Shown piece after piece: positions 4,961-29,897 of a stretch of DNA of 64,000 nucleotides (its first letter is position 1; each line of letters begins with the position of its first letter). The stretch lies in IMG/VR virus record IMGVR_UViG_3300034159_000059, one strand, 5' to 3'. This DNA is from a virus. Under the pieces are notes generated by a model that saw only the letters and a list, made by a program, of their open reading frames with translations, was not told the origin of the DNA and did no database searches. The position numbers and the translations under genes are program-made.

Positions 4961-5085
4961 CTCGGAGCTCTTGAGCTGTGGTAGTAGAAGTCCCCCGCAT
5001 AGCTCAACTGGCAGAGCACTCGGCTACTAGCGTCGAATAGGTTCCGGGTTCGATCCCCGGTGCGGGGTTTTGCTAGAGGGAGAAC

Positions 5086-8176: not shown

Positions 8177-8259
8177 GCCGACGACGTCAGGGACGGCCCC
8201 TGAGCTGACTGTAAATCAGATGCCTTCGGGCTAAGAAGGTTCGACTCCTTCCGGCGGCA
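8177..8259 (+). tRNA. tRNA-like, type II with candidate GTA (Tyr) anticodon; irregular D region
   Basis: T-arm GAAGGTTCGACTCCTTC, loop CTGTAAA between CTGA/TCAG, variable hairpin GCCTTCGGGC; acceptor has one mismatch and extra nt before D stem. Confidence 0.35.
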
Positions 8260-9816: not shown

Positions 9817-9886
9817 TTGCTCGATAGCTTAACGGTAGAGCACTGGCCATGAACCGGGGATACGGGTTCGATTCCTGTTCGAGCAA
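9817..9886 (+). tRNA. tRNA, anticodon unresolved (short, weak anticodon stem; possibly CAT-like)
   Basis: acceptor TGCTCGA/TCGAGCA, D-arm TAGCTTAACGGTAGAGC, T-arm ACGGGTTCGATTCCTGT; anticodon arm CTGGCCATGAACCGGGG does not fold canonically. Confidence 0.4.
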
Positions 9887-11799: not shown

Positions 11800-12612
11800 A
11801 TGACGGATCGCTACGACTTGAAAGACGTACTCTGGCCCGATGTTCCTTTCGACTTGTTGCAGCACGCCATTCTCATCGGCAAGAGAGGATCTGAGGCTCA
11901 CGGCACCTACGTGCCTCCAACATCTGAGGACGGACAGCCTCTCGCTCACGGAACAGATGACAGAGACATCATAGGGATCTGCATCCCTCCTCTCGACTAC
12001 TACTTCGGTCTGAAGCTCTGGGAAGGGAAGGACGCCATCAAGGACTGCTGGGACGTGGTGCTCTACTCCTTCCGGAAGTTCGTCGGCCTCCTCTGCGAGC
12101 AGAACCCCAACGTCATCTCCCTGCTGTGGCTGCGCGAGGAAGACTACCTGCGCGTCTCTCCAGAAGGCAGAACTCTCCTCCAGCACAGAGACCTGTTCCG
12201 CTCCAAGAACAGAGCCTTCAAGAGCTTCGTCGGATACGCCAACGGACAGCTACACCGCATGACGCACCTCGGTCCGTACAAAGGCTACATGGGAGAGAAG
12301 AGGAAGAAGCTGGTCGACAAGTACGGGTACGACTGCAAGAACGCGGCACACCTCATCCGCCTGCTCACCATGGGAGCCGAGTTCCTACGTACTGGCGCTC
12401 TTCGCGTCTACCGAGAGGATGATCGAGAGATGCTCGTCGACATCAAGCTCGGACGTTGGGCTCTGGCAGATGTGCAGAGCTACGCTGCCAAGCTGTTCGA
12501 AGAGACAAAGGCTGCGGCAGACAACAGCCCTCTTCCAGAACACCCGGACCTTGCAGCGATCAACCAGCTCTCTGTGGAGCTGACCAAGAACTTCTTCGAG
12601 AGACAGTCGTAG
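11800..12612 (+). CDS. putative nucleotidyltransferase-fold protein
   Basis: GSEAHGTYVPPTSEDGQPLAHGTDDRD resembles the GS...DxD NTase core; 270 aa, AAGGAGACC SD. Confidence 0.4.
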   Translation: MTDRYDLKDVLWPDVPFDLLQHAILIGKRGSEAHGTYVPPTSEDGQPLAHGTDDRDIIGICIPPLDYYFGLKLWEGKDAIKDCWDVVLYSFRKFVGLLCEQNPNVISLLWLREEDYLRVSPEGRTLLQHRDLFRSKNRAFKSFVGYANGQLHRMTHLGPYKGYMGEKRKKLVDKYGYDCKNAAHLIRLLTMGAEFLRTGALRVYREDDREMLVDIKLGRWALADVQSYAAKLFEETKAAADNSPLPEHPDLAAINQLSVELTKNFFERQS

Positions 12613-12793: not shown

Positions 12794-13255
12794 ATGCCGG
12801 AAATCACACGAACGAAGACGTGGTGGGACCGCTGGTTCATAGGGCTCGCGCGGTACATCGCATCTGCGTCGAAAGACCCAAGCACGGGAGTCGGCGCTGT
12901 CATCATCAGAGCAGATCGCACTCCCGTCTCCTGGGGATACAACGGATTCCCAAGAGGAGTGCGAGACACTCTGGAGCGGTACGAGGATCGAGCGACGAAG
13001 TACCTGATGATCTGCCACTCGGAACGGAACGCCCTTCTAGAAGCTCGACAAGATCTTCGAGGGTGTACGCTCTACACAACCTTCGTTCCGTGCGCTACGT
13101 GCGCCGGCATGATCATCCAAGCAGGAATCACTCGGGTGGTCACGATCCCCACTCCTCCAGAGAGAAAAGAGAGGTGGGCCAAAGACATCGCCGTCACAGA
13201 AACGATGTTCCAAGAGGCTGAGGTCGAGCTCACCTACTTGCAAGAAGACGCCTAG
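12794..13255 (+). CDS. dCMP/cytidine deaminase family protein
   Basis: zinc-binding motifs CHSERNAL and PCATCA; AAGGAGACGACG SD. Confidence 0.8.
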   Translation: MPEITRTKTWWDRWFIGLARYIASASKDPSTGVGAVIIRADRTPVSWGYNGFPRGVRDTLERYEDRATKYLMICHSERNALLEARQDLRGCTLYTTFVPCATCAGMIIQAGITRVVTIPTPPERKERWAKDIAVTETMFQEAEVELTYLQEDA

Positions 13256-13261
13256 CAGTTT

Positions 13262-13337
13262 CGGGATGTAGCTCAGCTTGGACGAGAGCGCATGCTCGGG
13301 GAGCATGAGGCCGCTGGTTCGAATCCAGTCATCCCGA
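13262..13337 (+). tRNA. tRNA-Pro(GGG); anticodon loop TCGGGGA has C at position 33
   Basis: C1:G72 acceptor CGGGATG/CATCCCG, anticodon stem CATGC/GCATG, T-arm GCTGGTTCGAATCCAGT. Confidence 0.65.
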
Positions 13338-13359
13338 CTTTCCTTTTTGAGGAGACACA

Positions 13360-13583
13360 TGACAGACCAGATGTTCTCTTTCTGTGAGACGATCACGGCG
13401 GGAGCGACGACGTCGTGGCACATTCGAAAGCTGACCGAGAAGGGCCGCAAGCTAAGCGGAGGGGCAGACACCCTCGCTCTCTGCGGTCGAGAGGTGTCTT
13501 GGGATCTCAGAGTCGATCTCGTCGAACCACACCTGTCTCATGCCTGTAAGCAGTGCGTAGAGAAATACCGTAACGGGGTGTAG
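13360..13583 (+). CDS. hypothetical Cys-containing protein
   Basis: 74 aa starting MTDQMFSF, GGAGACAC SD. Confidence 0.4.
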
Positions 13584-13647
13584 CTCAACCTGGTGGAGCG
13601 CTTGGTTCGGGACCAAGAGGCCGCGAGTTCGAATCTCGCCACCCCGA
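13574..13647 (+). tRNA. tRNA-Pro(CGG)
   Basis: C1:G72 acceptor CGGGGTG/CACCCCG, anticodon arm CTTGG-TTCGGGA-CCAAG, T-arm CGCGAGTTCGAATCTCGC. Confidence 0.8.
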
Positions 13648-13737
13648 CTCTTGTGCAGCATTCTGGTAGGAACAGACACCGCGTGCGAGGTCGCCAAGCG
13701 GTGGTGGGTGCTACGCACGCGGGCGACGCGCGTGCGG

Positions 13738-14034
13738 ATGCGGACACTGACTCCAAGCCCACAAGACGGTGCAGCAGGCGCAACCTGCCAACCCGTCCTG
13801 CACAAGTTCTTCGTTGGAGGGGAAGTGAATCTGGTCAAGCAAGACGAAGTCGACTTCTTCAAGAGGCAACTGACGAAACTCTTCGCACACGAGACTATCT
13901 GTAGCGCTTGTCGGACGGAGAAGGATCGTGCCGTGAAAGAGCAGAGAGATGTGACTGGGTTTGTACTCTGCCCAGTCCATCGACAGATGCGACGATCTTT
14001 GGCGAAAGATGAGAAGGACCGCGGCATGTACTGA
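13738..14034 (+). CDS. hypothetical protein
   Basis: ORF 13651-14034; internal ATG start chosen; 5' region is highly structured. Confidence 0.3.
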   Translation: MRTLTPSPQDGAAGATCQPVLHKFFVGGEVNLVKQDEVDFFKRQLTKLFAHETICSACRTEKDRAVKEQRDVTGFVLCPVHRQMRRSLAKDEKDRGMY

Positions 14035-14041
14035 TGAATAT

Positions 14042-14112
14042 CCCCCGGTAGCTCAGTGGTAGAGCAGTCGCTCGATAAGCGACAGGACCAGGTTCGACCC
14101 CTGGCCGGGGGA
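14042..14112 (+). tRNA. tRNA-Ile(GAT); loop TCGATAA has C at position 33
   Basis: acceptor CCCCCGG/CCGGGGG, anticodon stem GTCGC/GCGAC, T-arm CCAGGTTCGACCCCTGG. Confidence 0.65.
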
Positions 14113-14128
14113 TTTGGGGAGCGTTTAT

Positions 14129-14204
14129 GGAGACGTTCGTCTAGGGGTTAGGACACTGGTCTGTGGAACCGGCAACGCGAGTTCAAATCTCGCACGTCTC
14201 CCCA
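14129..14204 (+). tRNA. tRNA-His(GTG) with encoded G-1 and CCA
   Basis: G-1 pairs with C73; acceptor GAGACGT/ACGTCTC, anticodon arm CTGGT-CTGTGGA-ACCGG, T-arm GCGAGTTCAAATCTCGC, then CCCA. Confidence 0.8.
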
Positions 14205-14296
14205 TTTTTAACTCACTGCAAATATTCTCTCAGTGATGCGATAAGAGGATGCGAAGGAATTCTTCCTTTGCTTACCAGCAACTCACCGAGAGGGAC

Positions 14297-15739
14297 ATGG
14301 CTAATAACGTAATCAAGAAGATCCAGGACGTGGTGGCGACTCGGGGGGATGAGATGACCGACGCGCAGAAGCGCGAGATCGACGAGAACTATCGTCAGAT
14401 CGCGGAAGGGATCGCTGCGCGTGTCGAGGCGAAGGACCTGCCCAAGGTCGCCACCTGGCTCACGAAGATGAGCAAGGCGGCGGAGCAGGTTGTGTCCTTC
14501 CACGAGGCCTTCGACACCTTCCCGTTCGATGGCGCTGTCGCGTTCTTCAACGCGATGCAGGAGAAGTTCGGATTCGTCGAGCACCTGGCGCGGCAGTCCT
14601 TCTTCGGCTCGTCGCCGCCTCCGATGATCGGAGTCGAGATCGGGCCCGGCGAGACGGTCCAGGTCCCGTGGGGAGAGTTCGCTCTCCCCGGCTACGAAGA
14701 ACTCATCATCAGCGTCGGGACTCACGCCAACAAGGACGGGTTCCACTTCTGCATCTCCGGCCAGGTGAAGACCAAGGATCGGGATGTCGTCACCCAGATC
14801 GCCACACTCATCCGCAAGAACCTCAAGGAGAAGAGCATCTACAAGGGGAAGGCCATCCGCCTTCACTTCGACGAGGACTTCGATCCGGAGACGTACTCTC
14901 CGGACGACGTGGCACCGACCTTCCTCGATCTCTCGTCGATCAGCCCGGACGAGCTCATCCTGCCCGCCTCGGTGAAGAAGATGGTGCAGGACAGCCTCTT
15001 CACCCCGGTGGAGAAGACGGAGATGTGCCGGAAGTTCGGCATCCGAATCGGCCGCAAGGCCCTGCTCGCTGGCACCTACGGCGTCGGCAAGACGCTCACC
15101 GCCAACGTGCTGGCGCAGAAGGCCACCCAGCAGCCCCAGCCCTGGACGTTCATCTACCTGGACAACGTCCGTGACCTCGCGCACGGCCTCCGGATGGCCA
15201 AGCACTACACTCCGGCCATCATCTTCGCCGAGGACATCGATGCTGTGATGTCCGGGACGGAGCGGACCGACGAGATGAACGAGGTGCTCAACTCCATCGA
15301 CGGCATCGAGATCAAGGGCAAGGAGATCATGGTGGTCCTCACCACCAACCACGTCGAGCGCATCAACCAGGCCATGATCCGGCCCGGCCGCGTCGACGCT
15401 CTGATCGAGGTGACTCCGCCCGACGCCAAGGCGGCCGAGCAGCTCCTGCGGGTCTACGGCAAGAGCTTCATCGCCGCGACCGAGGATCTCAGCCAGGTCG
15501 GCAAGAGCCTGGACGGACAGCGGCCGGCGAGCATCGCGGAGGTCGTGGAGCGCTCCAAGCTCTCCGCCATCACGCGGCTCTCTCCTGGAGAGCCTCTCAG
15601 CATCACCCAGGAGGACCTGCTGAGCGCGAGCGAGAGCCTCAAGAAGCACATCGAGCTCGTCGATCGCAAGACGGTGGAAGAGCGGAAGAAGCCGAAGTCC
15701 AACGGTGTGGCCCACGGCGAGTCTCTCGCCGAGGCCTGA
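14297..15739 (+). CDS. AAA+ ATPase
   Basis: Walker A GTYGVGKT, Walker B IIFAEDID, sensor region LTTNHVERINQAMIRPGRVD; GAGAGGGAC SD. Confidence 0.8.
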   Translation: MANNVIKKIQDVVATRGDEMTDAQKREIDENYRQIAEGIAARVEAKDLPKVATWLTKMSKAAEQVVSFHEAFDTFPFDGAVAFFNAMQEKFGFVEHLARQSFFGSSPPPMIGVEIGPGETVQVPWGEFALPGYEELIISVGTHANKDGFHFCISGQVKTKDRDVVTQIATLIRKNLKEKSIYKGKAIRLHFDEDFDPETYSPDDVAPTFLDLSSISPDELILPASVKKMVQDSLFTPVEKTEMCRKFGIRIGRKALLAGTYGVGKTLTANVLAQKATQQPQPWTFIYLDNVRDLAHGLRMAKHYTPAIIFAEDIDAVMSGTERTDEMNEVLNSIDGIEIKGKEIMVVLTTNHVERINQAMIRPGRVDALIEVTPPDAKAAEQLLRVYGKSFIAATEDLSQVGKSLDGQRPASIAEVVERSKLSAITRLSPGEPLSITQEDLLSASESLKKHIELVDRKTVEERKKPKSNGVAHGESLAEA

Positions 15740-15744
15740 TTTCA

Positions 15745-15773
15745 GGAGGGGATGATCTTCATCCCCTCTTTTT
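15745..15773 (+). terminator. rho-independent terminator
   Basis: AGGAGGGGATGA-TCT-TCATCCCCTC followed by TTTTT. Confidence 0.7.
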
Positions 15774-15785
15774 AGCTAGTCGTTT

Positions 15786-15857
15786 GGGGGCTAATGCACA
15801 AGGTGTGCAGTCCGACTGTCTATCGGATGTCGACGGGTTCAATTCCCGTAGCCCTCG
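15786..15857 (+). tRNA. tRNA-Asp(GTC)-like (position 8 is A, purine-37 missing)
   Basis: acceptor GGGGGCT/AGCCCTC, anticodon arm TCCGA-CTGTCTA-TCGGA, T-arm GACGGGTTCAATTCCCGT. Confidence 0.5.
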
Positions 15858-15953
15858 CTCTCTACAAGTAAACTGACAGACTCGCGTGTCATAAGAAGGA
15901 TGCAGAGGTTTTACCCAAACCGCTGTTTCCTTTAACTCATACGAGGACATGAC

Positions 15954-16970
15954 ATGGTCACAAAGCGAAAGACCCCATCCCGGAACCGCGTCGAGCTCAC
16001 CGAAGAGATGAATGAGGTTCGGATCTACGCCTCTTCTGACCCTCTTCCGGAGCCCACTCGGATCGCGCAGGAGGCCAAGATCGCTGAGCTTCGCGAGAAG
16101 ACCGCCGGCATCTCGGTCGAGAGCGCGGTGAAGAAGCTCACGGACACTGGCCTCTCCGTCGGCAAGGCCATCGCCGACGTGCAAGCTACCATCGCCGCCC
16201 AGGTCACCGAGCTGGCCGAGATCCGCATGGCCATCGAGGAGGCCAAGAAGGATCTCGAAACGATCTACGGGAAGGAGGTCGCCGCTGCCTCGCTGGCCCA
16301 GCTCGTCGCCGACTTCGACGCCAAGAAGAAGGAGCTCGATGAGAGGGTTTCCACCTTCCAGGAGAACTGGGAGAAGCAGAAAGCCATCTACGCCAACCAG
16401 GAGGAAGACCGGGTGGAGGTGGAGCAGACGGCCCGGCAGCGTGAACAGTCCGACTACGTCTACCACCGCGACATGGAGCGTCGGGGGTTGACCGACAAGT
16501 TCAACCAGCAGCTCCAGGACGACAAGAGAATCGAGCTCATCCGGAAGAACGACCTGGAGCGGAGCTGGGCCGAGCGCGAGGCTCGTCTGAAGGCGCAGGA
16601 GGAAAGCGTCGCCCAGATGAAGGCTCGCATCGACGGTCTGCCTACCGAGATCGACTCGGCCGTGAAGAAGGAGGTCGCCATCGTCTCGAACTCCATCTCG
16701 CGCGAGCACAAGCACCAGGTCGAGATCCTCACCAAGGACTTCTCCGCGAAGGAGACCATCCTCGGCGCTCAGGTGGAGAACCTGAAGACGCAGCTCGCGA
16801 ACGCTCACGACACCATCGCCAACCTTTCCCAGCAGCTCAACTCGGCCCAGGAGAAGGTCGCCAAGATCGCCTCCGACGCCCTCAACGCCGCCTCTGGTAC
16901 GCAGGCTCTCGCCGAGATGCGCAACATCGTCAACTCCGGCGCGAACAACGGAGCGCAGAAGAAGTCGTAG
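15954..16970 (+). CDS. coiled-coil hypothetical protein
   Basis: 338 aa, A/E/K-rich heptad-like sequence, GAGGAC SD. Confidence 0.6.
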   Translation: MVTKRKTPSRNRVELTEEMNEVRIYASSDPLPEPTRIAQEAKIAELREKTAGISVESAVKKLTDTGLSVGKAIADVQATIAAQVTELAEIRMAIEEAKKDLETIYGKEVAAASLAQLVADFDAKKKELDERVSTFQENWEKQKAIYANQEEDRVEVEQTARQREQSDYVYHRDMERRGLTDKFNQQLQDDKRIELIRKNDLERSWAEREARLKAQEESVAQMKARIDGLPTEIDSAVKKEVAIVSNSISREHKHQVEILTKDFSAKETILGAQVENLKTQLANAHDTIANLSQQLNSAQEKVAKIASDALNAASGTQALAEMRNIVNSGANNGAQKKS

Positions 16971-16981
16971 TACAGGTCTCG

Positions 16982-17010
16982 ACAGCGTCTCTCCGAAGAG
17001 ACGCTGTTTC
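16982..17010 (+). terminator. terminator-like hairpin
   Basis: AGCGTCTC-TCCGAA-GAGACGCT then GTTTC. Confidence 0.45.
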
Positions 17011-17083
17011 GCCGCTTTAGCTCTGAGGGTCAGAGCGCCCGCCTGAAGAGCGGGAGAATTCGGTTCGATCCCGAGAGGCGGCA
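17011..17083 (+). tRNA. tRNA-Phe(GAA)
   Basis: acceptor GCCGCTT/AGGCGGC, anticodon arm CCCGC-CTGAAGA-GCGGG, T-arm TTCGGTTCGATCCCGAG. Confidence 0.8.
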
Positions 17084-17085
17084 CT

Positions 17086-17157
17086 GGGCTGATAGTGACA
17101 ATGGTAGAACGGCGCTTTCGCACGGCGCAGATCTGGGTTCGATTCCCAGTCGGTCCA
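17086..17157 (+). tRNA. tRNA-Ala(CGC)
   Basis: G3:U70 in acceptor GGGCTGA/TCGGTCC, anticodon arm GCGCT-TTCGCAC-GGCGC, T-arm CTGGGTTCGATTCCCAG; weak D stem. Confidence 0.6.
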
Positions 17158-17243
17158 TTCCTCTCTAGGTCGCCAGGATCATACCTGGCATAGCGTTCAG
17201 GGAGAGAGGCAAGCGGGATAGAGTGAACGTAGTCCCGTGTTTC

Positions 17244-17315
17244 GCCCGAGTAGTTCAGTGGCAGAACGCTGTCTTGACATGGCAGAAGTCGAAGGTTCGA
17301 TTCCTTCCTCGGGCA
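17244..17315 (+). tRNA. tRNA-Val(GAC)
   Basis: acceptor GCCCGAG/CTCGGGC, anticodon arm CTGTC-TTGACAT-GGCAG, T-arm GAAGGTTCGATTCCTTC. Confidence 0.8.
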
Positions 17316-17438
17316 CTCGCAGCACCTCTTTGAACCGTGACGCGGGCCGATAACCCGCCTCTCCGGGAATGGAGGGTCATCGCCTTGCGACGGTGACACG
17401 CTGCGAACCCATTTCCCCAAAGCATCAGGAGACGAACA

Positions 17439-17848
17439 TGGATGAGAGAGCATGGGCGGTTGGGTTGGCTCCTACCTACCAGAGGATGAGCAGGACGCAG
17501 ACGGACACTTTCGTCGTGGCGTCTATGGCTGAGGCCGTAGCCGAGGAAGATGTGCCAGAAGCCGAGGAAGCGTTCCTCGTCCAGGTCCTCAACAAGCGTA
17601 TCGAGGTCCACAACCTGCCGATCAGTTTTTCTGGACCGGCGAAGATGGCGGTGCTCGCTCTGACGGATCGACCGGGCTCTGTGGTCGCTCTTCTGATCGA
17701 TTGCCTCAACGCCTACGAAGGCCAGAAGGTCACCGTGGAGAAGCTGGCGGATCTTTACCCTACCGGCTTCTACGACGAGGACACTCTCATCCGCTACGCG
17801 GATCAGTACTTGAAGACGCGAAAGGTGAAGTGGTCTGATCTGTACTAG
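17439..17848 (+). CDS. hypothetical protein
   Basis: 136 aa, AGGAGACGAAC SD. Confidence 0.5.
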
Positions 17849-17855
17849 AAGCAGT

Positions 17856-17927
17856 GGGCTCTTCGTCTAGCGGTCTGGATGCTGCCTCGGCAAGGCAGAG
17901 GTACCGGTTCAACCCCGGTAGGGTCCA
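17856..17927 (+). tRNA. tRNA-Ala(GGC); loop TCGGCAA has C at position 33
   Basis: G3:U70 in acceptor GGGCTCT/AGGGTCC, anticodon stem CTGCC/GGCAG, T-arm ACCGGTTCAACCCCGGT. Confidence 0.65.
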
Positions 17928-17942
17928 TCTACAAGGAGACAA

Positions 17943-18582
17943 CATGAGCTTCAAACTCTACGAAGCCTATAGGCTGAAGCCTGGAGTAGATCTCTGGGAG
18001 TTCGTTCACGACGTTCGGATCAAGGCTCAGAGACGAGCCGGGAGGATCCTTCGCACGGTGTATACGTCCCTGTTGCAAGACGCAGAGACGAACAAGAAGA
18101 TGAGGGAGGAGATCCTCAAGGCTTATTCACAAGGTCGTGAAATCCCTGACAGGCCTGTCGGAGCGGTAGACTGCGCTTGCTGGGTGCGAGAGAAGTACAA
18201 GCAGGCCTCTATCTCTCCCCGTAGGGATAAATTTGACCTCGACGTCTCGATCTCCTTCAGAAAGTACAAGCGCCACTGGTACATCATCCCATTCCCCGGA
18301 TCCGGCCTATTCAACAATGTACTTTCGTTCATGCGGAAGGATCCGAGACTGGAGGAGTACCACTATCAGAACCAGACGGATAAGAGCGCCAAATACTCGA
18401 ACCGAGAGTGGGGGCGAAGGAGGAAGATCTGGTTCTACCTCATGGACTACCTCAAGAACGAAGATCGCGAAGGAGACCAGCTCTGCTTGGCCATCTGCAA
18501 GCATGACATGTTCACTAAAGTCGACCCTTCCCTAGCCATGTTTCAAGAACGGCACAAGAGGAAGAGGCGCAAGAAGAAGTGA
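17943..18582 (+). CDS. hypothetical protein with basic C-terminus
   Basis: 213 aa, CAAGGAGACAAC SD. Confidence 0.55.
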
Positions 18583-18590
18583 CGTAGGAC

Positions 18591-18666
18591 GGGCCTATAG
18601 CTCCAACGGTAGAGCAGCGCCTTTGCAAGGCGACGGTTGCCGGTTCAAGTCCGGCTGGGTCCACCA
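18591..18666 (+). tRNA. tRNA-Ala(TGC), CCA encoded
   Basis: G3:U70 in acceptor GGGCCTA/TGGGTCC, anticodon loop TTTGCAA, T-arm GCCGGTTCAAGTCCGGC, then ACCA. Confidence 0.75.
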
Positions 18667-18668
18667 CT

Positions 18669-18739
18669 GCCTCCACAGCTCGAAGGTAGAGCACATCCTT
18701 GGTAAGGATGAGGTCTGGGTTCGATTCCCAGTGGAGGCT
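18669..18739 (+). tRNA. tRNA-Thr(GGT)
   Basis: acceptor GCCTCCA/TGGAGGC, anticodon arm CATCC-TTGGTAA-GGATG, T-arm CTGGGTTCGATTCCCAG. Confidence 0.75.
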
Positions 18740-18755
18740 CTGAGAGGAGATGAGG

Positions 18756-19001
18756 ATGTTGCTTCCGAAACCAGAGTGTAGCTGCGGCTTCACGAAGAAG
18801 CAGATCGTGGGAATCATGGGGCTCCGAACGGAGGAGTTCTGGGACTGGATGCGGAACCAGACCGTGATGCTCTGTGACGGCAAGGAGTACAACCACGCGG
18901 AGAAGAGGTATCAAGTGGTTTGTGATGGAGTCGCCCACGGCACCGTCATCTACCAGAGGGACGTGGAACGCTTCCTTGCAGGTCTCCCTGTTCGCGACTG
19001 A
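18756..19001 (+). CDS. hypothetical protein
   Basis: 81 aa, GAGAGGAGATGAGG SD. Confidence 0.45.
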   Translation: MLLPKPECSCGFTKKQIVGIMGLRTEEFWDWMRNQTVMLCDGKEYNHAEKRYQVVCDGVAHGTVIYQRDVERFLAGLPVRD

Positions 19002-19165
19002 GGGCACTGTGGCCGAAAGACCGCTCGAATGGTGGGAAGAAGAGCAGCTCAGGCTCCTTGAGGCCGCGAGTGTTCATCACGGGATCGACATCACAAAGGA
19101 CCTCCAGCGTTTTCGGGAACACCCGGACGAGTGGAGAGCCTTCCGAGAAAAGCTGAATGAGCCAT

Positions 19166-19239
19166 CTCCCCGTAGCTCAACGGATCAGAGCACTTGACTA
19201 CGGATCAAGAGGCTGAGAGTTCGAATCTCTCCGGGGAGT
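19166..19239 (+). tRNA. tRNA-Arg(ACG)
   Basis: acceptor CTCCCCG/CGGGGAG, anticodon arm CTTGA-CTACGGA-TCAAG, T-arm GAGAGTTCGAATCTCTC. Confidence 0.75.
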
Positions 19240-19247
19240 CCAATCAT

Positions 19248-19321
19248 ACCCCTGTAGCTCAGTGGATGAGAGCGCTGGTTTCCGAAACCAGAGGCCGCAG
19301 GTTCAAGTCCTGCCAGGGGTA
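19248..19321 (+). tRNA. tRNA-Arg(CCG)
   Basis: acceptor ACCCCTG/CAGGGGT, anticodon arm CTGGT-TTCCGAA-ACCAG, T-arm GCAGGTTCAAGTCCTGC. Confidence 0.75.
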
Positions 19322-19324
19322 CTT

Positions 19325-19397
19325 GCTCTCGTGGCCCAATGGACAAGGCAGCGGTTTCCTAAACCGCAGACTGCTGGTTCGAATCCAGCCGAGAGCG
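19325..19397 (+). tRNA. tRNA-Arg(CCT)
   Basis: acceptor GCTCTCG/CGAGAGC, anticodon arm GCGGT-TTCCTAA-ACCGC, T-arm GCTGGTTCGAATCCAGC. Confidence 0.75.
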
Positions 19398-19494
19398 TCA
19401 AGCACGGTGCCTGTGGACTAAGGCGGGCACACTGGAGGAGGACCTGCCGACTAAGCCACAAGGGTCCCTCCCACAAGTTGATATGGAGACTCAG

Positions 19495-19707
19495 ATGCCA
19501 AAGAAAGTTCTCGTCTACTTCAAGGCCATGACAGACGGAGATGAGAATCTCAGCAAGGTCGTCGAGGCTACAGAAGATGAGTGGAGAGCTCTCAAGCGCA
19601 CCGAGGGAGCCGAGGAAGATCTCTTCGACAAGGTGTACAAGCGTAGAGGTATCAACTGTACGATCGAGGAGCTGAAGAAGATTTCTCGACGTATTCCGAT
19701 GGTATGA
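19495..19707 (+). CDS. hypothetical protein
   Basis: 70 aa, ATGGAGACTCAG SD. Confidence 0.45.
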   Translation: MPKKVLVYFKAMTDGDENLSKVVEATEDEWRALKRTEGAEEDLFDKVYKRRGINCTIEELKKISRRIPMV

Positions 19708-19714
19708 TGGTTGA

Positions 19715-19800
19715 CGCGGGGTCGTCTAGCGGTCGAGGACATCGGGCTCATAACCCGAAAGGCGCAAGCCTCATCGTGAGTTCAAATCTCACCCCCGCAA
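19715..19800 (+). tRNA. initiator tRNA-fMet(CAT) with 17-nt variable region carrying a GNRA hairpin
   Basis: 5' CGCGGGG and 3' CCCCGCAA (C1xA72 mismatch), anticodon arm TCGGGCTCATAACCCGA with three G:C pairs, all identical to E. coli tRNA-fMet; variable region AAGGCGCAAGCCTCATC instead of 5 nt. Confidence 0.75.
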
Positions 19801-19815
19801 CTTTTGGAGAAGTAC

Positions 19816-20025
19816 ATGGCCGACTACAAAGTGGAGCTGGATCTAACAGCAGGAGAGTTGGTAGCTCTTGGGTACGTAGTCATGAAAGGCTACATGGCGG
19901 CGAAGGAGAGCGAAGACGTCTGCCTCCCCGACATCAGAACTCTGTCGGACAAGATCACCGCTCTCATGGGAGGGGTCTCGCCCTTACCTGTGAAGGAAGA
20001 AACCAAGCGGATCGTGGAGCTGTGA
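19816..20025 (+). CDS. small protein with C-terminal KRIVEL tag
   Basis: 69 aa, GGAGAAGTAC SD; ends ...VKEETKRIVEL. Confidence 0.5.
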   Translation: MADYKVELDLTAGELVALGYVVMKGYMAAKESEDVCLPDIRTLSDKITALMGGVSPLPVKEETKRIVEL

Positions 20026-20027
20026 CA

Positions 20028-20099
20028 CAGTGAGCTGGCCGATTGGTAAGGCACTCGCCCCATAAGCGAGATCATTCGGGTTCAAATCCCGAGCTCACT
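20028..20099 (+). tRNA. tRNA-Met/Ile2(CAT); loop CCCATAA has C at position 33
   Basis: A1:U72 acceptor AGTGAGC/GCTCACT, anticodon stem CTCGC/GCGAG, T-arm TCGGGTTCAAATCCCGA. Confidence 0.6.
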
Positions 20100-20101
20100 A
20101 C

Positions 20102-20176
20102 CCGAGGAGAGTGGAGCTGGTGACCCCGGCTGTCCCACACACAGCCTCTCGCTGGGTTCGATTCCCAGTCCTCGGA
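20102..20176 (+). tRNA. tRNA-like, anticodon uncertain (6-bp anticodon stem, loop CCCACAC, weak D arm)
   Basis: acceptor CCGAGGA/TCCTCGG, stem GGCTGT/ACAGCC, T-arm CTGGGTTCGATTCCCAG; followed (20177-20215) by an orphan second T-arm CAAGGTTCGATTCCTTG. Confidence 0.3.
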
Positions 20177-20671
20177 CTGAAAGCGTCGCAAGGTTCGATT
20201 CCTTGGGCGCGGACTCTTCATCGCGGGATGTTGGCCTAAAAGCAGCCATCATTCAAAGAGTGGACAAAGGCAGGAAGTCGTTGGGGAGAAAGCTACTTGC
20301 GAAGCACCCTGTAGAATGTCGCAAGGGGAGAAGGCCAGTCAGGGACGGACGGGCAGGATCAAGGCTCATAGAGACTGGGAACCCGTGAACCGCTAATGCT
20401 GTGACACTGGCAACCGAAACACGAATCCTGGGAGCACCGGGGCAAGTCGGGCTAGACCCGATTTCTTTCAAGTGTCCGAGAGCGCCCTCTGGCGCAAGGC
20501 TCGGCTTCTCTGATCCTCAAGACCTGACGGGCCCGTCGGGAACGAGGCTGGGTCGGCTCCATTGGGGAGTCCGATAAGTCAGAGACTCGGCACGAAGAAC
20601 GTCTCAGAAGCGTTCGGAAGGAATCCTTTGGCGTAATAGCACACCTCGATGAAGAAACTTACGGAGGAAGC

Positions 20672-20938
20672 GTGGCGAGACGAGAGAGGGAGAAGCTACC
20701 TCTCCAGGAATTCTTCGACCTGAAGCCTGGAGACGTATTCACCGTCTACTATGCAAAGGACGATGATCCAACGGATGTCCGCTTTGAGTATGAGACCAGG
20801 AAGGTCCTCTCGAACAAGGGGGGGAGGATCTCCGACGATGAGGGGGACATCTGGGGGCAGGCTGGGCAGGAACGTATGGACCGAAACGACAACCAGTTCG
20901 ACATGAGTCGAGGCCATGCTCACCTCTACAAAGCTTAG
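20672..20938 (+). CDS. hypothetical acidic protein
   Basis: 88 aa, GTG start 6 nt after GGAGGA. Confidence 0.45.
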   Translation: MARREREKLPLQEFFDLKPGDVFTVYYAKDDDPTDVRFEYETRKVLSNKGGRISDDEGDIWGQAGQERMDRNDNQFDMSRGHAHLYKA

Positions 20939-20945
20939 GAGCACA

Positions 20946-21026
20946 GGTCCAGTGGCGGAATGGTAGACGCGCACGGCTCAGGACCGTGTGGGTAACACCG
21001 TGAGAGTTCGAATCTCTCCTGGACCA
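20946..21026 (+). tRNA. tRNA-Leu(CAG)
   Basis: acceptor GGTCCAG/CTGGACC, anticodon arm CACGG-CTCAGGA-CCGTG, extended variable arm, T-arm GAGAGTTCGAATCTCTC. Confidence 0.7.
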
Positions 21027-23682: not shown

Positions 23683-23823
23683 AGCGGGATGGAGCCCTCC
23701 GGGGCTTGGGGATCGGGCCCTCCTCTCTCCGCCACATTCGTCCCTGATGCGGTAACCAGCCCGCCGTGTTTGGAATCAGGGATGAAGCAGGGCGCCTCAG
23801 CCTGTGATCTGAGGCACTTTCAT

Positions 23824-23908
23824 GGAAAGCGTAGTCGGAGTGGTCCGACACCGGTCTCGAAAACCGGGCATGGCTTCGGCTGTGAGGGTTCGACTCCCTA
23901 GCTTTCCG
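23824..23908 (+). tRNA. tRNA-Ser(CGA)
   Basis: type II: acceptor GGAAAGC/GCTTTCC, anticodon arm CCGGT-CTCGAAA-ACCGG, long variable hairpin GGCTTCGGCT. Confidence 0.7.
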
Positions 23909-23911
23909 TTT

Positions 23912-24001
23912 GGAGCCAGCAGACCGGGAGGGTCCCGGCACCAGCTTGGAACGCTGGTCATCGCGCAAGCGGTGGAGGTTCGATCCCTCATGGCTCCGCC
24001 A
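23912..24001 (+). tRNA. tRNA-Ser(GGA), CCA encoded
   Basis: type II: acceptor GGAGCCA/TGGCTCC, anticodon arm CCAGC-TTGGAAC-GCTGG, variable hairpin CGCGCAAGCG, then GCCA. Confidence 0.7.
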
Positions 24002-24005
24002 ACCT

Positions 24006-24074
24006 CCCCAGGCCTGGTGGTCGGATGCTCGACGCGCAACGAGCAGGTTCGTTCAACGCGAACCCTGGGGGCCA
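24006..24074 (+). tRNA. tRNA-like with 8-nt anticodon loop (ACGCGCAA), CCA encoded; identity unknown
   Basis: acceptor CCCCAGG/CCTGGGG, stem GCTCG/CGAGC, T-arm GTTCG-TTCAACG-CGAAC, then GCCA; reduced D arm. Confidence 0.3.
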
Positions 24075-24344
24075 CACCGCGTAGGAGACGACGATGGAAG
24101 AGGGTCAAAAGACTCGACGTTGGAAGTCCTTCCGACGCCTGATGCCGACCGCCCCAGACTGGGAATACGGGCTCTGGATCTCATCGAAGTGGAAAGAGTT
24201 CGCCAACTCCAAGGGAGTGATGAAGTCGTTTGACTCAAGCTATTTCAACGCTCTCATGCTGACAGACCAGTACTGGTTCAACCTCGACAAGCTCCAGAAC
24301 GACTTCGACGATTGGCTGGAGCAGCTTCCAAGAACGGAAACGCC

Positions 24345-24815
24345 ATGCGAGTGCTCTTCCTCGACGACATGAAGATTCGCCACGAAGCCTACGCGAAAAC
24401 CCACATCGGCCAGGACACCGTGTACGTCTTCACGGCAAAAGAGGCGAAGGACGTGCTCGACAACCAGCCGCGTTTTGACCGAGCCCAGCTAGACCACGAC
24501 CTCGCCGAGGAGCATTACTTGGAGCTCTCCGAGGGCCTTTACGAGAGCGCGCAGCACTCTCCCACCTGCCTCGTTTCTCAAGGGCACGTCTACGCATGCA
24601 CCTGCGGAGCGCAGGAAGACGCCTACAAGACGAAGAAGCTCGTCGGCACTGGGATGGACGTCGTCGACCACATCGTGGCCATGGATCCCTACAAGCGTCC
24701 CAGGTACGTGATCATCCACTCTTACAACGAGAGGGGTGCCGAGATGCTGCGACGTCTCAAAGACGCCGGCGTCCCATCCGTCTGGATCCGTTTCGATCCC
24801 AAGAGCACTTTCTAG
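24345..24815 (+). CDS. hypothetical protein
   Basis: ORF 24312-24815; ATG 24345 chosen; overlaps the 3' end of ORF 24094-24372, whose frame is also open. Confidence 0.4.
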   Translation: MRVLFLDDMKIRHEAYAKTHIGQDTVYVFTAKEAKDVLDNQPRFDRAQLDHDLAEEHYLELSEGLYESAQHSPTCLVSQGHVYACTCGAQEDAYKTKKLVGTGMDVVDHIVAMDPYKRPRYVIIHSYNERGAEMLRRLKDAGVPSVWIRFDPKSTF

Positions 24816-24824
24816 GAGCACACG

Positions 24825-24903
24825 GTCGGGAGGGCCCCGACACTCGCCTGCTAAACGAGTCACTCCGCAAGGGGTGCCGGTTCGATCCCGGGGTGCTCCG
24901 CCA
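24825..24903 (+). tRNA. tRNA-Ser(GCT), CCA encoded
   Basis: acceptor GGAGCAC/GTGCTCC, anticodon loop CTGCTAA, long variable arm, T-arm GCCGGTTCGATCCCGGG, then GCCA. Confidence 0.7.
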
Positions 24904-28255: not shown

Positions 28256-29245
28256 ATGACGACGACATTCAAGGTCAGCGATGTGAAGCGGGAAGGTCCC
28301 TTCTCTCCTTCGAAATACGTGTCGGACCTCGACCAAGCGTTCAGTCACTTCTCCAAGAAGCTCGGTATGCGCTTCGAGGCGGTGGGTGGGCCCGCCAAGG
28401 TCTTGCCAGAAGGGCTGAACGGGTTCTGGTCAGCGATAGACATGGCCTTCAACTGGCACATTCCTCTGGGCCTCACACCGGACCATGTCTGGCTCACCAT
28501 CAGCCGCACTTTCGCAGAGCACGTGGTGAAGAATGCGGAAGAGCTTCGAAAGCGCTTCGTAGACTTCGACGGCCAGAAGCTGCTAACGGTTCGTCGAGAC
28601 AACTTCGTGAAGGGGAGCGCTGAGAACGACTGGCAAGGCGTCTTCTCCGAGTTCTCCGACCAGATCGCCGAGAACATCGGAAAAGCTCGGGACCTCGTAG
28701 TCTGCAACTTCTCCACCACAGGTCCGGTCGAGAAGGCGGCGTCTGAGGTGGTGCTCATGGACGCCATGCAGAAGTATTTCAAGTACGAAATCATGACCTG
28801 CTGCGGCATCCCAGAGATCACACTCTTCGGCACTACGCAGGACTGGATGGACGTTCTGGTTCGTACTCGTAATCTCGGCGAGTACGGGCTTCAGGAATGG
28901 GTGGAGGACCTTCTACCGGTGCTGGAGCAGTTCGTGCGCGCCTCTACGGGAGATGTCGATACCGAGTGGTGGCAGAGCTTCTACAAGGAATACTCCGGGT
29001 CGGGTAGTGTGACGATTGACGGGCACTTCACGAAGTTCTTCCCACGAAGCGCCGGGGCTCCCTTCGTCGGCAGGAAGAGTATGTCTCCGAGCGACATTCC
29101 GTTCGCCGTCTCAAAAGTGCCGTTCGTGTGGACCTACTACACAGAGAGCTTCGATATGCTGTTCGTCGCCGGAGTCCCCTTCGCGACGGTACAAAACGGC
29201 ATGATGATCCCAGCAGCGGCGTGGGCCGTCGGGGAACAGGCGTAA
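28256..29245 (+). CDS. hypothetical protein
   Basis: 329 aa, GAGAGGATAGACCC SD. Confidence 0.55.
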   Translation: MTTTFKVSDVKREGPFSPSKYVSDLDQAFSHFSKKLGMRFEAVGGPAKVLPEGLNGFWSAIDMAFNWHIPLGLTPDHVWLTISRTFAEHVVKNAEELRKRFVDFDGQKLLTVRRDNFVKGSAENDWQGVFSEFSDQIAENIGKARDLVVCNFSTTGPVEKAASEVVLMDAMQKYFKYEIMTCCGIPEITLFGTTQDWMDVLVRTRNLGEYGLQEWVEDLLPVLEQFVRASTGDVDTEWWQSFYKEYSGSGSVTIDGHFTKFFPRSAGAPFVGRKSMSPSDIPFAVSKVPFVWTYYTESFDMLFVAGVPFATVQNGMMIPAAAWAVGEQA

Positions 29246-29270
29246 CAGAGTCTCTACACGAAAGGGCAGT

Positions 29271-29897
29271 ATGACCACCGAGGCCAAATCGGCGTTCGTC
29301 GTGGCCGTCACAGGGCACCGTCCTGACAAGCTCGGCGGATACAACACCCCGAACCCTCTCTACGACCTCGTCATCAAGGGACTGGTCGACGCCTTCGAGA
29401 AGCTCAAGCCAGCTTACGTCATCAGCGGCATGGCTTTGGGCGTCGACCAGTGGGCCGCTGAAGTCTGTCTCAACATGGGCATCCCCTTCGTGGCGGCCAT
29501 TCCATTCATCGGGCAGGAGAAGATCTGGCCTCCGAAATCTCAGATCAAGTACCACCTGCTCCTCTCCAAAGCCTTCGCCAAATACGTCATCTGTGAAGAA
29601 GGCTTTGCGCCTTGGAAGATGAAGAAGCGCAACGAGTGGATGGTCGACTCTTGTCAGCAGGTGGTCGCCGTCTGGAACGGTACTAAGGGAGGTACCGCTT
29701 CCTGCGTTGAGATGGCGCATGCGAAAGGGAAACCGATCCACTACGTCCAACTCCCACCGCCCGGAATGGAGGTCGGAGACTTCTACCAGAAGCTTGTGGG
29801 GGAGAAGTCAACCATCGTGGACGACCTCCTCAAAGAAGAAGCGCAGAAGGAGAAGACCGTCGTTAAGCCTGGAACGAAACGAATCGTGGAGCTCTAG
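29271..29897 (+). CDS. YpsA-like SLOG domain protein (DUF1273 family) with C-terminal KRIVEL tag
   Basis: VAVTGHRPDKLGG, ISGMALGVDQWAAEV and AAIPFIGQEKIWP align with B. subtilis YpsA (ITGYKP, ISGQLGVELWAAEA, AVITPFYEQEKNW); ends ...VVKPGTKRIVEL. Confidence 0.7.
   Translation: MTTEAKSAFVVAVTGHRPDKLGGYNTPNPLYDLVIKGLVDAFEKLKPAYVISGMALGVDQWAAEVCLNMGIPFVAAIPFIGQEKIWPPKSQIKYHLLLSKAFAKYVICEEGFAPWKMKKRNEWMVDSCQQVVAVWNGTKGGTASCVEMAHAKGKPIHYVQLPPPGMEVGDFYQKLVGEKSTIVDDLLKEEAQKEKTVVKPGTKRIVEL

Follow-up and report, generated by a model that had tools for sequence, protein, structure and literature searches.

The stretch of DNA analysed, referred to throughout as the window, is the whole 64,000 nucleotides (58% G+C) of the IMG/VR virus record IMGVR_UViG_3300034159_000059. 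Between positions 4993 and 25284 it carries a tRNA array of 44 genes, every one of them on the plus strand, with small open reading frames (ORFs) in between; 43 of these genes were called by ARAGORN and one was identified by Rfam search and manual folding. Four tRNAs of this array carry cytidine (C33) in place of uridine (U33) at position 33, the nucleotide of the U-turn in the anticodon loop. The tRNA-Pro(GGG) gene at 13262-13337 has the anticodon arm catgc-UCGGGGA-gcatg with C33 at 13297, tRNA-Ile(GAU) at 14042-14112 has the arm gtcgc-UCGAUAA-gcgac with C33 at 14073, tRNA-Ala(GGC) at 17856-17927 has the arm ctgcc-UCGGCAA-ggcag with C33 at 17888, and a tRNA with a CAU anticodon (elongator Met or Ile2) at 20029-20100 has the arm ctcgc-CCCAUAA-gcgag with C33 at 20060. 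Canonical cloverleafs were returned by ARAGORN for all four, and the Rfam tRNA model RF00005 (gathering threshold 29 bits) aligned each of them at full length (model positions 1-71) with scores of 59.9, 63.9, 48.7 and 59.1 bits, respectively, placing a C opposite model position 33 with high posterior probability across the anticodon arm. The anticodon stem is 5 bp and the loop 7 nt in every case, and position 37 is a purine (G, A, A and A, respectively).

The register of these loops was examined by enumerating every hairpin of the anticodon region whose stem has 4 bp or more and whose loop spans 6-9 nt. The sole fold with U as the second loop nucleotide is obtained by opening the 31-39 pair, which leaves a 4-bp stem and a 9-nt loop, and it was rejected as inferior and as altering the anticodon of the Ile and Ala tRNAs. 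Use of U32 as the turn nucleotide with a shifted anticodon was rejected as well, since the Ile and Ala tRNAs would then read Ser and Pro codons. ARAGORN, the Rfam alignment and the stem enumeration therefore concur with an earlier note on this DNA, which had reported C at position 33 in these four genes, and no equal or better alternative fold restores U33 in any of them. That note had also described a UC in place of CU at positions 32-33; this describes three of the loops correctly but does not amount to a swapped dinucleotide, because the orthologues differ at position 32, with CC (Ile), UU or AU (Pro) and AU (Ala) at 32-33, and the change is therefore one of U33 to C beside a variable position 32. 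Its premise that U33 is required for the canonical U-turn proved overstated as a strict requirement, as C33 is found in eukaryotic initiator tRNAs (PMC5041475). U33, which ranks among the best-conserved nucleotides in biology, is called almost invariant in the same source, the only exceptions given in textbooks and reviews being eukaryotic initiator tRNAs and Candida tRNA-Ser (PMC5041475).

Apart from position 33, the four genes are structurally sound. In an alignment of 15 C33 tRNA-Ile(GAU) genes, 98.4% of cells were paired on the standard cloverleaf and 19 of 21 pairs showed compensatory change, pairing fell to 32-47% when the 3' partner was slid by one to three columns, and both C33 and the anticodon were invariant. 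The T-loop sites T54, T55, C56 and A58 were intact in 43 of 43 window tRNAs, whereas position 33 was changed in 7 of 43, and among 53 viral C33 tRNAs no deviation was seen at these four sites, compared with 1-2% in viral tRNAs overall; the change is therefore position-specific and not a sign of general decay. In their alignments the four C33 tRNAs keep U8, A14, G18G19, T54-T55-C56 and A58, together with identity elements, namely G3:U70 in tRNA-Ala(GGC) and its orthologues, C1-G72/A73 and G36-G37 in tRNA-Pro(GGG), and A73 and A37-A38 in tRNA-Ile(GAU). The Pro(GGG), Ile(GAU) and Ala(GGC) genes are each the sole window gene with its anticodon, and tRNA-Ile(GAU) is the only phage tRNA for ATC/ATT; across 35 long ORFs, ATC/ATT make up 96% of Ile codons, GCC/GCT 60% of Ala codons and CCC/CCT 49% of Pro codons. 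The suggestion of the earlier note that these copies might be decoys thus found no support, given the retained core residues and identity elements, the covarying stems and the status of sole copies for major codons. Pseudogenes or degenerate copies were likewise rejected on the basis of intact stems and cores, good scores, conserved invariants, compensatory change in orthologues and the reading of major codons, degenerate features being confined to three other members of the array described below (the Val-CAC call, the slot at 9818 and the CUA gene). The four are genuine, structurally intact phage tRNA genes, and U33 is the one tested feature in which their products depart from canonical tRNAs.

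The frequency of such loops was assessed with a single ARAGORN pipeline, the cellular and IMG/VR comparison sets being fetched with one loop-agnostic pattern (120 stretches each). Position 33 was U in 249 of 251 tRNAs from the cellular genome stretches, leaving 2 without it, compared with 24 non-U33 loops among 604 tRNAs of the random IMG/VR set (19 C, 2 A, 1 G and 2 odd loops) and 7 among the 43 ARAGORN calls of the window. The excess in the window is therefore beyond chance (Fisher p=2.6e-5 against the cellular set and p=0.003 against the viral set). Across all 44 window genes, seven lack U33 (six C33, one A33). A second IMG/VR sample, retrieved with a pattern that fixed GAUAA and the T loop and left positions 32 and 33 free, was pooled with the first; in this pooled sample U33 was absent from 67 of 1437 tRNAs (53 C, 10 A, 4 G), and C33 occurred on 27 of 207 unrelated viral tRNA loci. 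C33 is thus recurrent in phages and rare in cells. A concentration of C33 on tRNA-rich contigs was not borne out, the non-U33 rate being 4.7% for large and 4.6% for small loci. GC pressure was rejected as a sufficient cause, as high-GC bacteria retain U33 and C33 also occurs in AT-rich phage tRNAs (contig L155) and in enterobacterial T5-like phages. One sampled locus, L369 (IMGVR_UViG_3300036820_000009), is denser than the window, with 31 tRNA calls in 4.9 kb, seven of them C33 (Met, Glu-CUC, Ser-CGA, Ser-UGA, Ile-GAU, Lys-CUU and Val-UAC).

The change is unevenly distributed among anticodons. U33 was missing from 15 of 70 viral tRNA-Ile(GAU) copies (12 of them C33) compared with 52 of 1367 tRNAs with other anticodons (odds ratio 6.9, p=2e-7), and was present in all 6 cellular copies. 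Next in the pooled sample were Glu-UUC (7/49), Glu-CUC (4/13), Lys-UUU (5/53), Val-GAC (3/7) and Thr-GGU (2/9). The 12 C33 Ile-GAU genes lie on 11 diverged contigs with a mutual identity of 50-87%, and three IMG/VR contigs (L330, L361 and L393) carry C33 and U33 copies of this tRNA together. In addition, one C33 tRNA-Ile(GAU) matches 89 INPHARED records at an identity of at least 99% (100% in all 40 among the matches listed), all of them cultured T5-like Demerecviridae of Klebsiella, Serratia, Erwinia and Salmonella; the loop of T5 itself is CUGAUAA (U33). The Sugarlandvirus-type phage vB_Kpn_IME260 (KX845404), one of the Demerecviridae, resembles the window in having C33 in an otherwise canonical tRNA-Ile, and its loop CCGAUAA (C32-C33) matches the change in the window tRNA-Ile(GAU) and in the orthologues of the related contigs L002 and L085. 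However, family and host are unrelated to those of the window phage, the identity of the tRNA to the window copy is moderate, and its 24-gene array contains a single C33 gene compared with up to six in the window; the gene is annotated as plain tRNA-Ile, and no comment on it was found in the literature searched.

Relatives of the window were traced through the AAA+/nSTAND3-type ATPase encoded inside the array (14249-15739, plus strand), which occupies the same position in synteny-sharing relatives at 53-61% identity. The informative relatives are Logan, JGI and NCBI contigs reached through protein ids; the 80 IMG/VR loci of AAA-protein relatives are mostly 36-54% identical and lack the array, and a megablast search of positions 13000-21000 against INPHARED returned a single 42-nt match, no cultured phage in that collection resembling the region. 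Syntenic arrays were obtained from five relatives, and the gene order of the window array follows that of contigs L002, L085 and L565. The CAU tRNA, downstream of the AAA gene, occupies its slot with an identical CCCAUAA loop in L002 and L003 (separate assemblies from two sequencing runs), and has U33 in L004, L085, L087 and L565. The tRNA-Ile(GAU) loop is CCGAUAA (C33) in L002 and in L085/L086, with U33 in L565 and L566. For tRNA-Pro(GGG), a homologue on contig L454 (92 kb, 17 tRNAs) retains the loop UCGGGGA unchanged and has an acceptor and T arm identical to those of the window, its anticodon stem being wholly replaced with compensation (ttggt/accaa compared with catgc/gcatg in the window). 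That homologue was obtained together with a reference set by scanning metagenomes with a T-arm/acceptor pattern, which matched many tRNA-Pro genes on short, few-tRNA and presumably bacterial contigs without enrichment in the clade; U33 was found in 66 of 67 Pro-GGG homologues with the same T arm and acceptor. Orthologues of tRNA-Ala(GGC) in L002, L085, L565 and L566 read AUGGCAU, and an analogue with the loop UCGGCAG was found on the unrelated viral contig L108. Sequencing error, which the earlier note had allowed for, is therefore excluded by independent assemblies for Ile-GAU, CAU and Pro-GGG, the parallel for Ala-GGC being an analogue only.

The set of C33 tRNAs varies between close relatives. 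It comprises Pro-GGG, Ile-GAU, Ala-GGC, CAU, Val-CAC and a tRNA-like 'His-AUG' in the window, Thr-UGU, Ile-GAU, Val-GAC, Thr-GGU and CAU in L002, Ile-GAU and Val-GAC in L085, and Val-GAC only in L566, where both Ile-GAU copies have U33; L565 has none (0 of 41 tRNAs non-U33). Plus-strand tRNAs without a canonical U33 loop number six in L002, three in L085, one in L566 and none in L565. A neighbour-joining tree of the AAA protein, a rough tree built from a single protein, places the window as outgroup and shows genomes with C33 and with U33 in tRNA-Ile(GAU) intermixed, indicating that position 33 changed several times in the clade. The earlier note had proposed looking for the same feature in homologous phage tRNAs, and it is present in L002, L085, L454, IMG/VR contigs and Demerecviridae. 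A lineage-specific peculiarity, another explanation offered there, is not supported by these data, the same change being seen in at least 27 of the 207 unrelated viral loci and in cultured Demerecviridae, and being polymorphic within the window's own clade. Specialised copies, also suggested there, would be compatible with the data.

Three further genes of the array without U33 were not listed in the earlier note. The weak tRNA-Val(CAC) call at 20102-20177 (plus strand; loop CCCACAC, C33 at 20135) was made by ARAGORN only, has a D-stem mismatch and is absent from the Rfam hits at E<=1; its orthologues in the relatives have U33. An odd class-I tRNA-like 'His(AUG)' gene at 9818-9886 (plus strand) has the loop CCAUGAA with C33 at 9848 and a good tRNA body (49.8 bits in Rfam). 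It occupies a slot conserved after Gly-UCC in which the loop varies, from CCAUGAA in the window to a 6-nt ACUGAA in L002 (4862-4935) and CAUAGAA (A33) in L085 (3800-3875). The third is a tRNA-like gene with the amber-suppressor-type anticodon CUA at 4993-5068 (plus strand; loop UACUAGC, A33 at 5026), called by ARAGORN and scoring 42.9 bits in Rfam, which lies directly 3' of the adenylosuccinate synthetase gene. Recoding of TAG as the reason for this gene was considered and discounted, since 23 of 61 long ORFs terminate in TAG, which is therefore not recoded.

Further irregularities were noted in the array and in its relatives. A tRNA-Tyr(GUA) gene at 8177-8258 (plus strand), whose variable arm is long and whose loop is the canonical CUGUAAA, was missed by ARAGORN and seen in Rfam only through the tRNA-Sec model (29.1 bits), the slot being Tyr-GUA in L002, L085 and L565; the Asp gene at 15786-15858 was likewise scored only through the Sec model. 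An initiator-like CAU tRNA at 19715-19800 (plus strand, 55.1 bits) combines a C1xA72 mismatch, a GGG/CCC anticodon stem and U33 with a 13-nt insertion that folds into an additional variable-region arm, an unusual feature in tRNA-Met. Thr-GGU at 18669-18740 has C8, three Ser genes within 23823-24903 have 3-nt connectors between acceptor and D stems, and U8 is missing in 7 of the 43 window ARAGORN parses, partly as an effect of parsing. Minus-strand 'Ile-AAU' tRNA-like calls (loop GUAAUGA) were found once or twice per relative downstream of Leu-CAA in the plus-strand arrays (L002 14575-14643, L004 5853-6007, L085 15120-15273, L087 3600-3676, and also L566-L569), and have no counterpart in the window.

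The window looks like part of a jumbo-phage-like, uncultured phage genome of roughly 200 kb that encodes an almost full set of tRNAs together with an RNA-repair suite. Its phage character is indicated by a GH108 lysin, HNH endonucleases and the IMG/VR relatives of the flanking AAA protein, and no capsid or terminase gene lies within the 64-kb window. The AAA ATPase has more than 1000 metagenome homologues; its cluster occurs on contigs of up to 209 kb, and the 53-61% identical relatives are on contigs of 197-203 kb. Within the array are encoded an RlaP nucleotidyltransferase (11800-12612; PF10127, 'RNA repair pathway DNA polymerase beta family', E=2e-14) and a cREC_REC domain protein (24312-24815; PF20274, 'Cyclic-phosphate processing Receiver domain', E=2.3e-10), and beyond it a major vault protein (MVP)/vault-like protein (37809-40364) adjoins an RtcB RNA ligase (40480-41661; Pfam PF01139, E=4.7e-122), all on the plus strand. 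The RNA-repair-associated suite as a whole (37809-41661, 28256-29897, 11800-12612 and 24312-24815, plus strand) consists of MVP-like, RtcB, RlaP and cREC_REC proteins, found beside DUF4419 and YpsA-SLOG genes. The YpsA/SLOG protein and the adenylosuccinate synthetase are also encoded in the window, and relatives add TROVE/Ro60 with vWA (L004, L565, L567), an RNA ligase (L002) and tRNA_lig_CPD with an AAA_33 kinase (L005). RtcB joins 2',3'-cyclic-phosphate and 5'-OH ends. Such ends are left by cleavage with the toxin CdiA-CT(EC536) (PMC11724271).

Several known systems resemble the window in part. The closest was described by van den Berg et al. (eLife 2023, PMC10264068), in whose study large phage tRNA arrays, anticodon-loop differences and tRNA repair functions are likewise combined; there the changes lie at known cleavage or recognition sites of VapC, colicin D and PrrC, whereas in the window the U-turn nucleotide itself is altered. 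The main text of that study is silent on position 33, U33 and the U-turn, and its supplementary table contains, unremarked, one C33 tRNA-His (loop UCGUGAU) (PMC10264068). The window tRNAs share encoding in a phage array with the nuclease-evading tRNAs of that study and are otherwise candidate members of the group only. A natural, functional C33 with a CAU anticodon exists in the initiator tRNA-Met of multicellular eukaryotes (PMC5041475), where C33 modulates N6-threonylcarbamoyladenosine at position 37 (t6A37) (PMC8887486). C33 and CAU are common to this initiator and the window CAU tRNA at 20029-20100, but the latter has no initiator traits, its stem being CUCGC/GCGAG without three G:C pairs, its 1-72 pair A-U and its T loop a normal TTCAAAT; moreover, the other three window C33 tRNAs are Pro, Ile and Ala elongators, and the context is bacterial and viral. 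The nucleases PrrC/RloC, CdiA-CT EC536 and HepS, whose sites or targets overlap the affected nucleotide or tRNAs, are candidate adversaries and not homologues of window genes. No prior description of C33 in phage tRNAs was found in full-text literature searches, the scope of which did not extend to subscription-only papers.

The reading we favour, tentatively and at something short of even chances, is that these are functional phage tRNAs whose U33C change lets them escape host anticodon-loop nucleases or modification enzymes. The broader form of this reading, in which U33-to-C is a recurrent and hitherto unnoticed counter-defence signature of phage tRNAs, commonest in Ile-GAU, usable by the ribosome and refractory to a class of nucleases, is possible and is put forward with greater reserve. 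Evasion is suggested by the phage excess, the Ile-GAU hot spot, the intact state of the other invariants and the co-resident RNA-repair genes; from the sequence we infer expression, aminoacylation, decoding and nuclease resistance of the C33 tRNAs. A single U-to-C transition would replace the U-turn nucleotide and alter how host anticodon-loop proteins see the tRNA, while decoding would be retained. By a direct route, the substitution would adjoin the bonds cut by nucleases acting at 32|33 or 33|34; by an indirect route, C33 would block t6A37, and a toxin needing the modified loop would fail to recognise the tRNA, which would concern Ile-GAU and CAU in the window and the Thr tRNAs in L002. The outcome would be a cleavage-resistant supply of tRNAs for heavily used codons while host tRNAs are destroyed by defence or competition nucleases.

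Published work offers precedents. Anticodon-loop changes in phage tRNAs have been proposed to evade anticodon nucleases (PMC10264068), PrrC cleaves 3' of U33 and RloC excises nucleotide 34 (PMC2610378), CdiA-CT(EC536) cuts tRNA-Ile(GAU) between C32 and U33 (PMC11724271), and the activity of CdiA-CT(EC3006) was monitored on tRNA-Ile (PMC9424206). HepS, an anti-phage HEPN nuclease of prophage origin, acts most on Thr-GGU and then on Thr-UGU, Thr-CGU, Ile-GAU and Ser-GCU (PMC13043305), and in the window's clade C33 is found on the HepS-target species Ile-GAU, Thr-GGU and Thr-UGU. As regards the indirect route, the E. coli TsaBCDE enzymes place no t6A37 on U33C tRNA (PMC8887486). When the window loops are compared with bacterial-type homologues, which may not be those of the host, the latter have U33 in 66 of 67 Pro-GGG and 6 of 6 cellular Ile-GAU tRNAs.

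Several considerations weigh against escape. To our knowledge, neither Pro-GGG nor Ala-GGC is a nuclease target, and the window phage has no known host, nuclease adversary or cleavage site. C33 is unstable among close relatives, which fits an arms race and near-neutral flipping equally. U33C stem-loops were not protected from colicin E5 (PMC1635277) or gamma-toxin (PMC2275089), so that C33 does not confer resistance in general. Finally, loss of t6A could impair charging by isoleucyl-tRNA synthetase (IleRS), t6A being a positive determinant for human tRNA-Ile (PMC8887486).

The strongest rival, which we consider somewhat unlikely, is relaxed constraint: U33C would be a slightly deleterious variant that is tolerated, the phage tRNAs merely supplementing the host pool and Ile-GAU being the most tolerant species. 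The flipping of C33 counts across the clade (6, 5, 2, 1 and 0 in the window, L002, L085, L566 and L565, respectively) and the interleaving of the two states on the AAA-protein tree are what such tolerance would produce, as is the equality of the non-U33 rate in large and small loci. U-to-C is moreover a transition, and C the mildest substitute, working in eukaryotic initiators (PMC5041475), and some enzyme-substrate interactions are unaffected by U33C (PMC2275089, PMC1635277). The deviation of other invariant positions, 1-2% in viral compared with about 0% in cellular tRNAs, also points to a general relaxation; however, viral position 33 deviates two to four times as often as T54, T55, C56 or A58, and the C33 tRNAs are cleaner than average at these same sites. 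Simple tolerance also sits poorly with the strong anticodon bias towards Ile-GAU (p=2e-7), the retention of the Pro-GGG loop UCGGGGA through complete turnover of its stem, the occurrence of a C33 Ile tRNA at no less than 99% identity in 89 cultured phage records, and the coexistence of C33 and U33 Ile-GAU copies on three contigs.

An unlikely alternative to both is the tuning of modification, in which C33, with U32 in three of the loops, is an anti-determinant for host enzymes such as TsaBCDE and the hypomodified tRNA is altered in decoding speed or fidelity and not in nuclease sensitivity. The inactivity of E. coli TsaBCDE on U33C and the role of C32 and U33 as determinants of yeast KEOPS (PMC8887486) are consistent with it, and a substantial fraction of the non-U33 viral tRNAs, most of which have C33, are decoders of ANN codons (Ile, Lys, Thr, Asn and Met). 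However, C33 also occurs in tRNAs for non-ANN codons (Pro-GGG, Ala-GGC, Val, Glu and others), in which t6A is never present, and no benefit of t6A absence is known.

It is quite improbable that the genes specify non-decoding tRNA-like RNAs, either decoys titrating a nuclease or sensor or substrates of phage RNA-repair or Ro60-like machinery. Ro60/TROVE, RtcB and RlaP systems are encoded across the window and its relatives, their cellular counterparts work with tRNA-like Y RNAs, and aberrant genes do exist in the array (the 9818-9886 slot, the CUA/A33 gene and the weak Val-CAC call). In the four tRNAs, however, the identity sets are complete and the cores canonical, three of the four are the sole phage copies for major codons, and a search with Rfam for Y RNAs gave no significant match (YrlA, 22.9 bits, E=0.74). 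Restoration of the encoded C33 to U or pseudouridine by C-to-U editing, giving a canonical mature tRNA, is very improbable: such editing is known in the anticodon loops of bacterial and organellar tRNAs, position 32 being one example, but this is a general precedent only, nothing in the present analysis supports it, and a Pfam scan of the approximately 58 window ORFs (64 kb of roughly 209 kb) revealed no deaminase domain. An artefact of assembly, sequencing or fold registration is scarcely credible, as no point in its favour was found, the same C33 recurs in independent assemblies (Ile-GAU in L002 and L085/L086, CAU in L002/L003, Pro-GGG in L454), and the anticodon arm has high Rfam posterior probability and no competitive alternative fold.

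Overall, 3-5% of the sampled phage tRNAs, and about a fifth of the phage Ile-GAU copies, lack U33 yet are otherwise impeccable, and the frequency of C33 in phage tRNA-Ile would surprise a tRNA specialist. Such tRNAs provide natural material on the need of the ribosome, IleRS and the t6A enzymes for U33. Because C33 is present in cultured T5-like phages of Klebsiella, Serratia, Erwinia and Salmonella, the evasion idea is directly testable, and C33 could serve as a sequence marker for undiscovered anticodon nucleases in hosts. Should it reflect mere tolerance, it would recalibrate the 'invariance' of U33 outside cells and caution annotators against discarding such genes. To the debate on whether phage tRNAs serve codon supply or evasion of tRNA-targeting immunity, C33 adds an easily mutated nucleotide.

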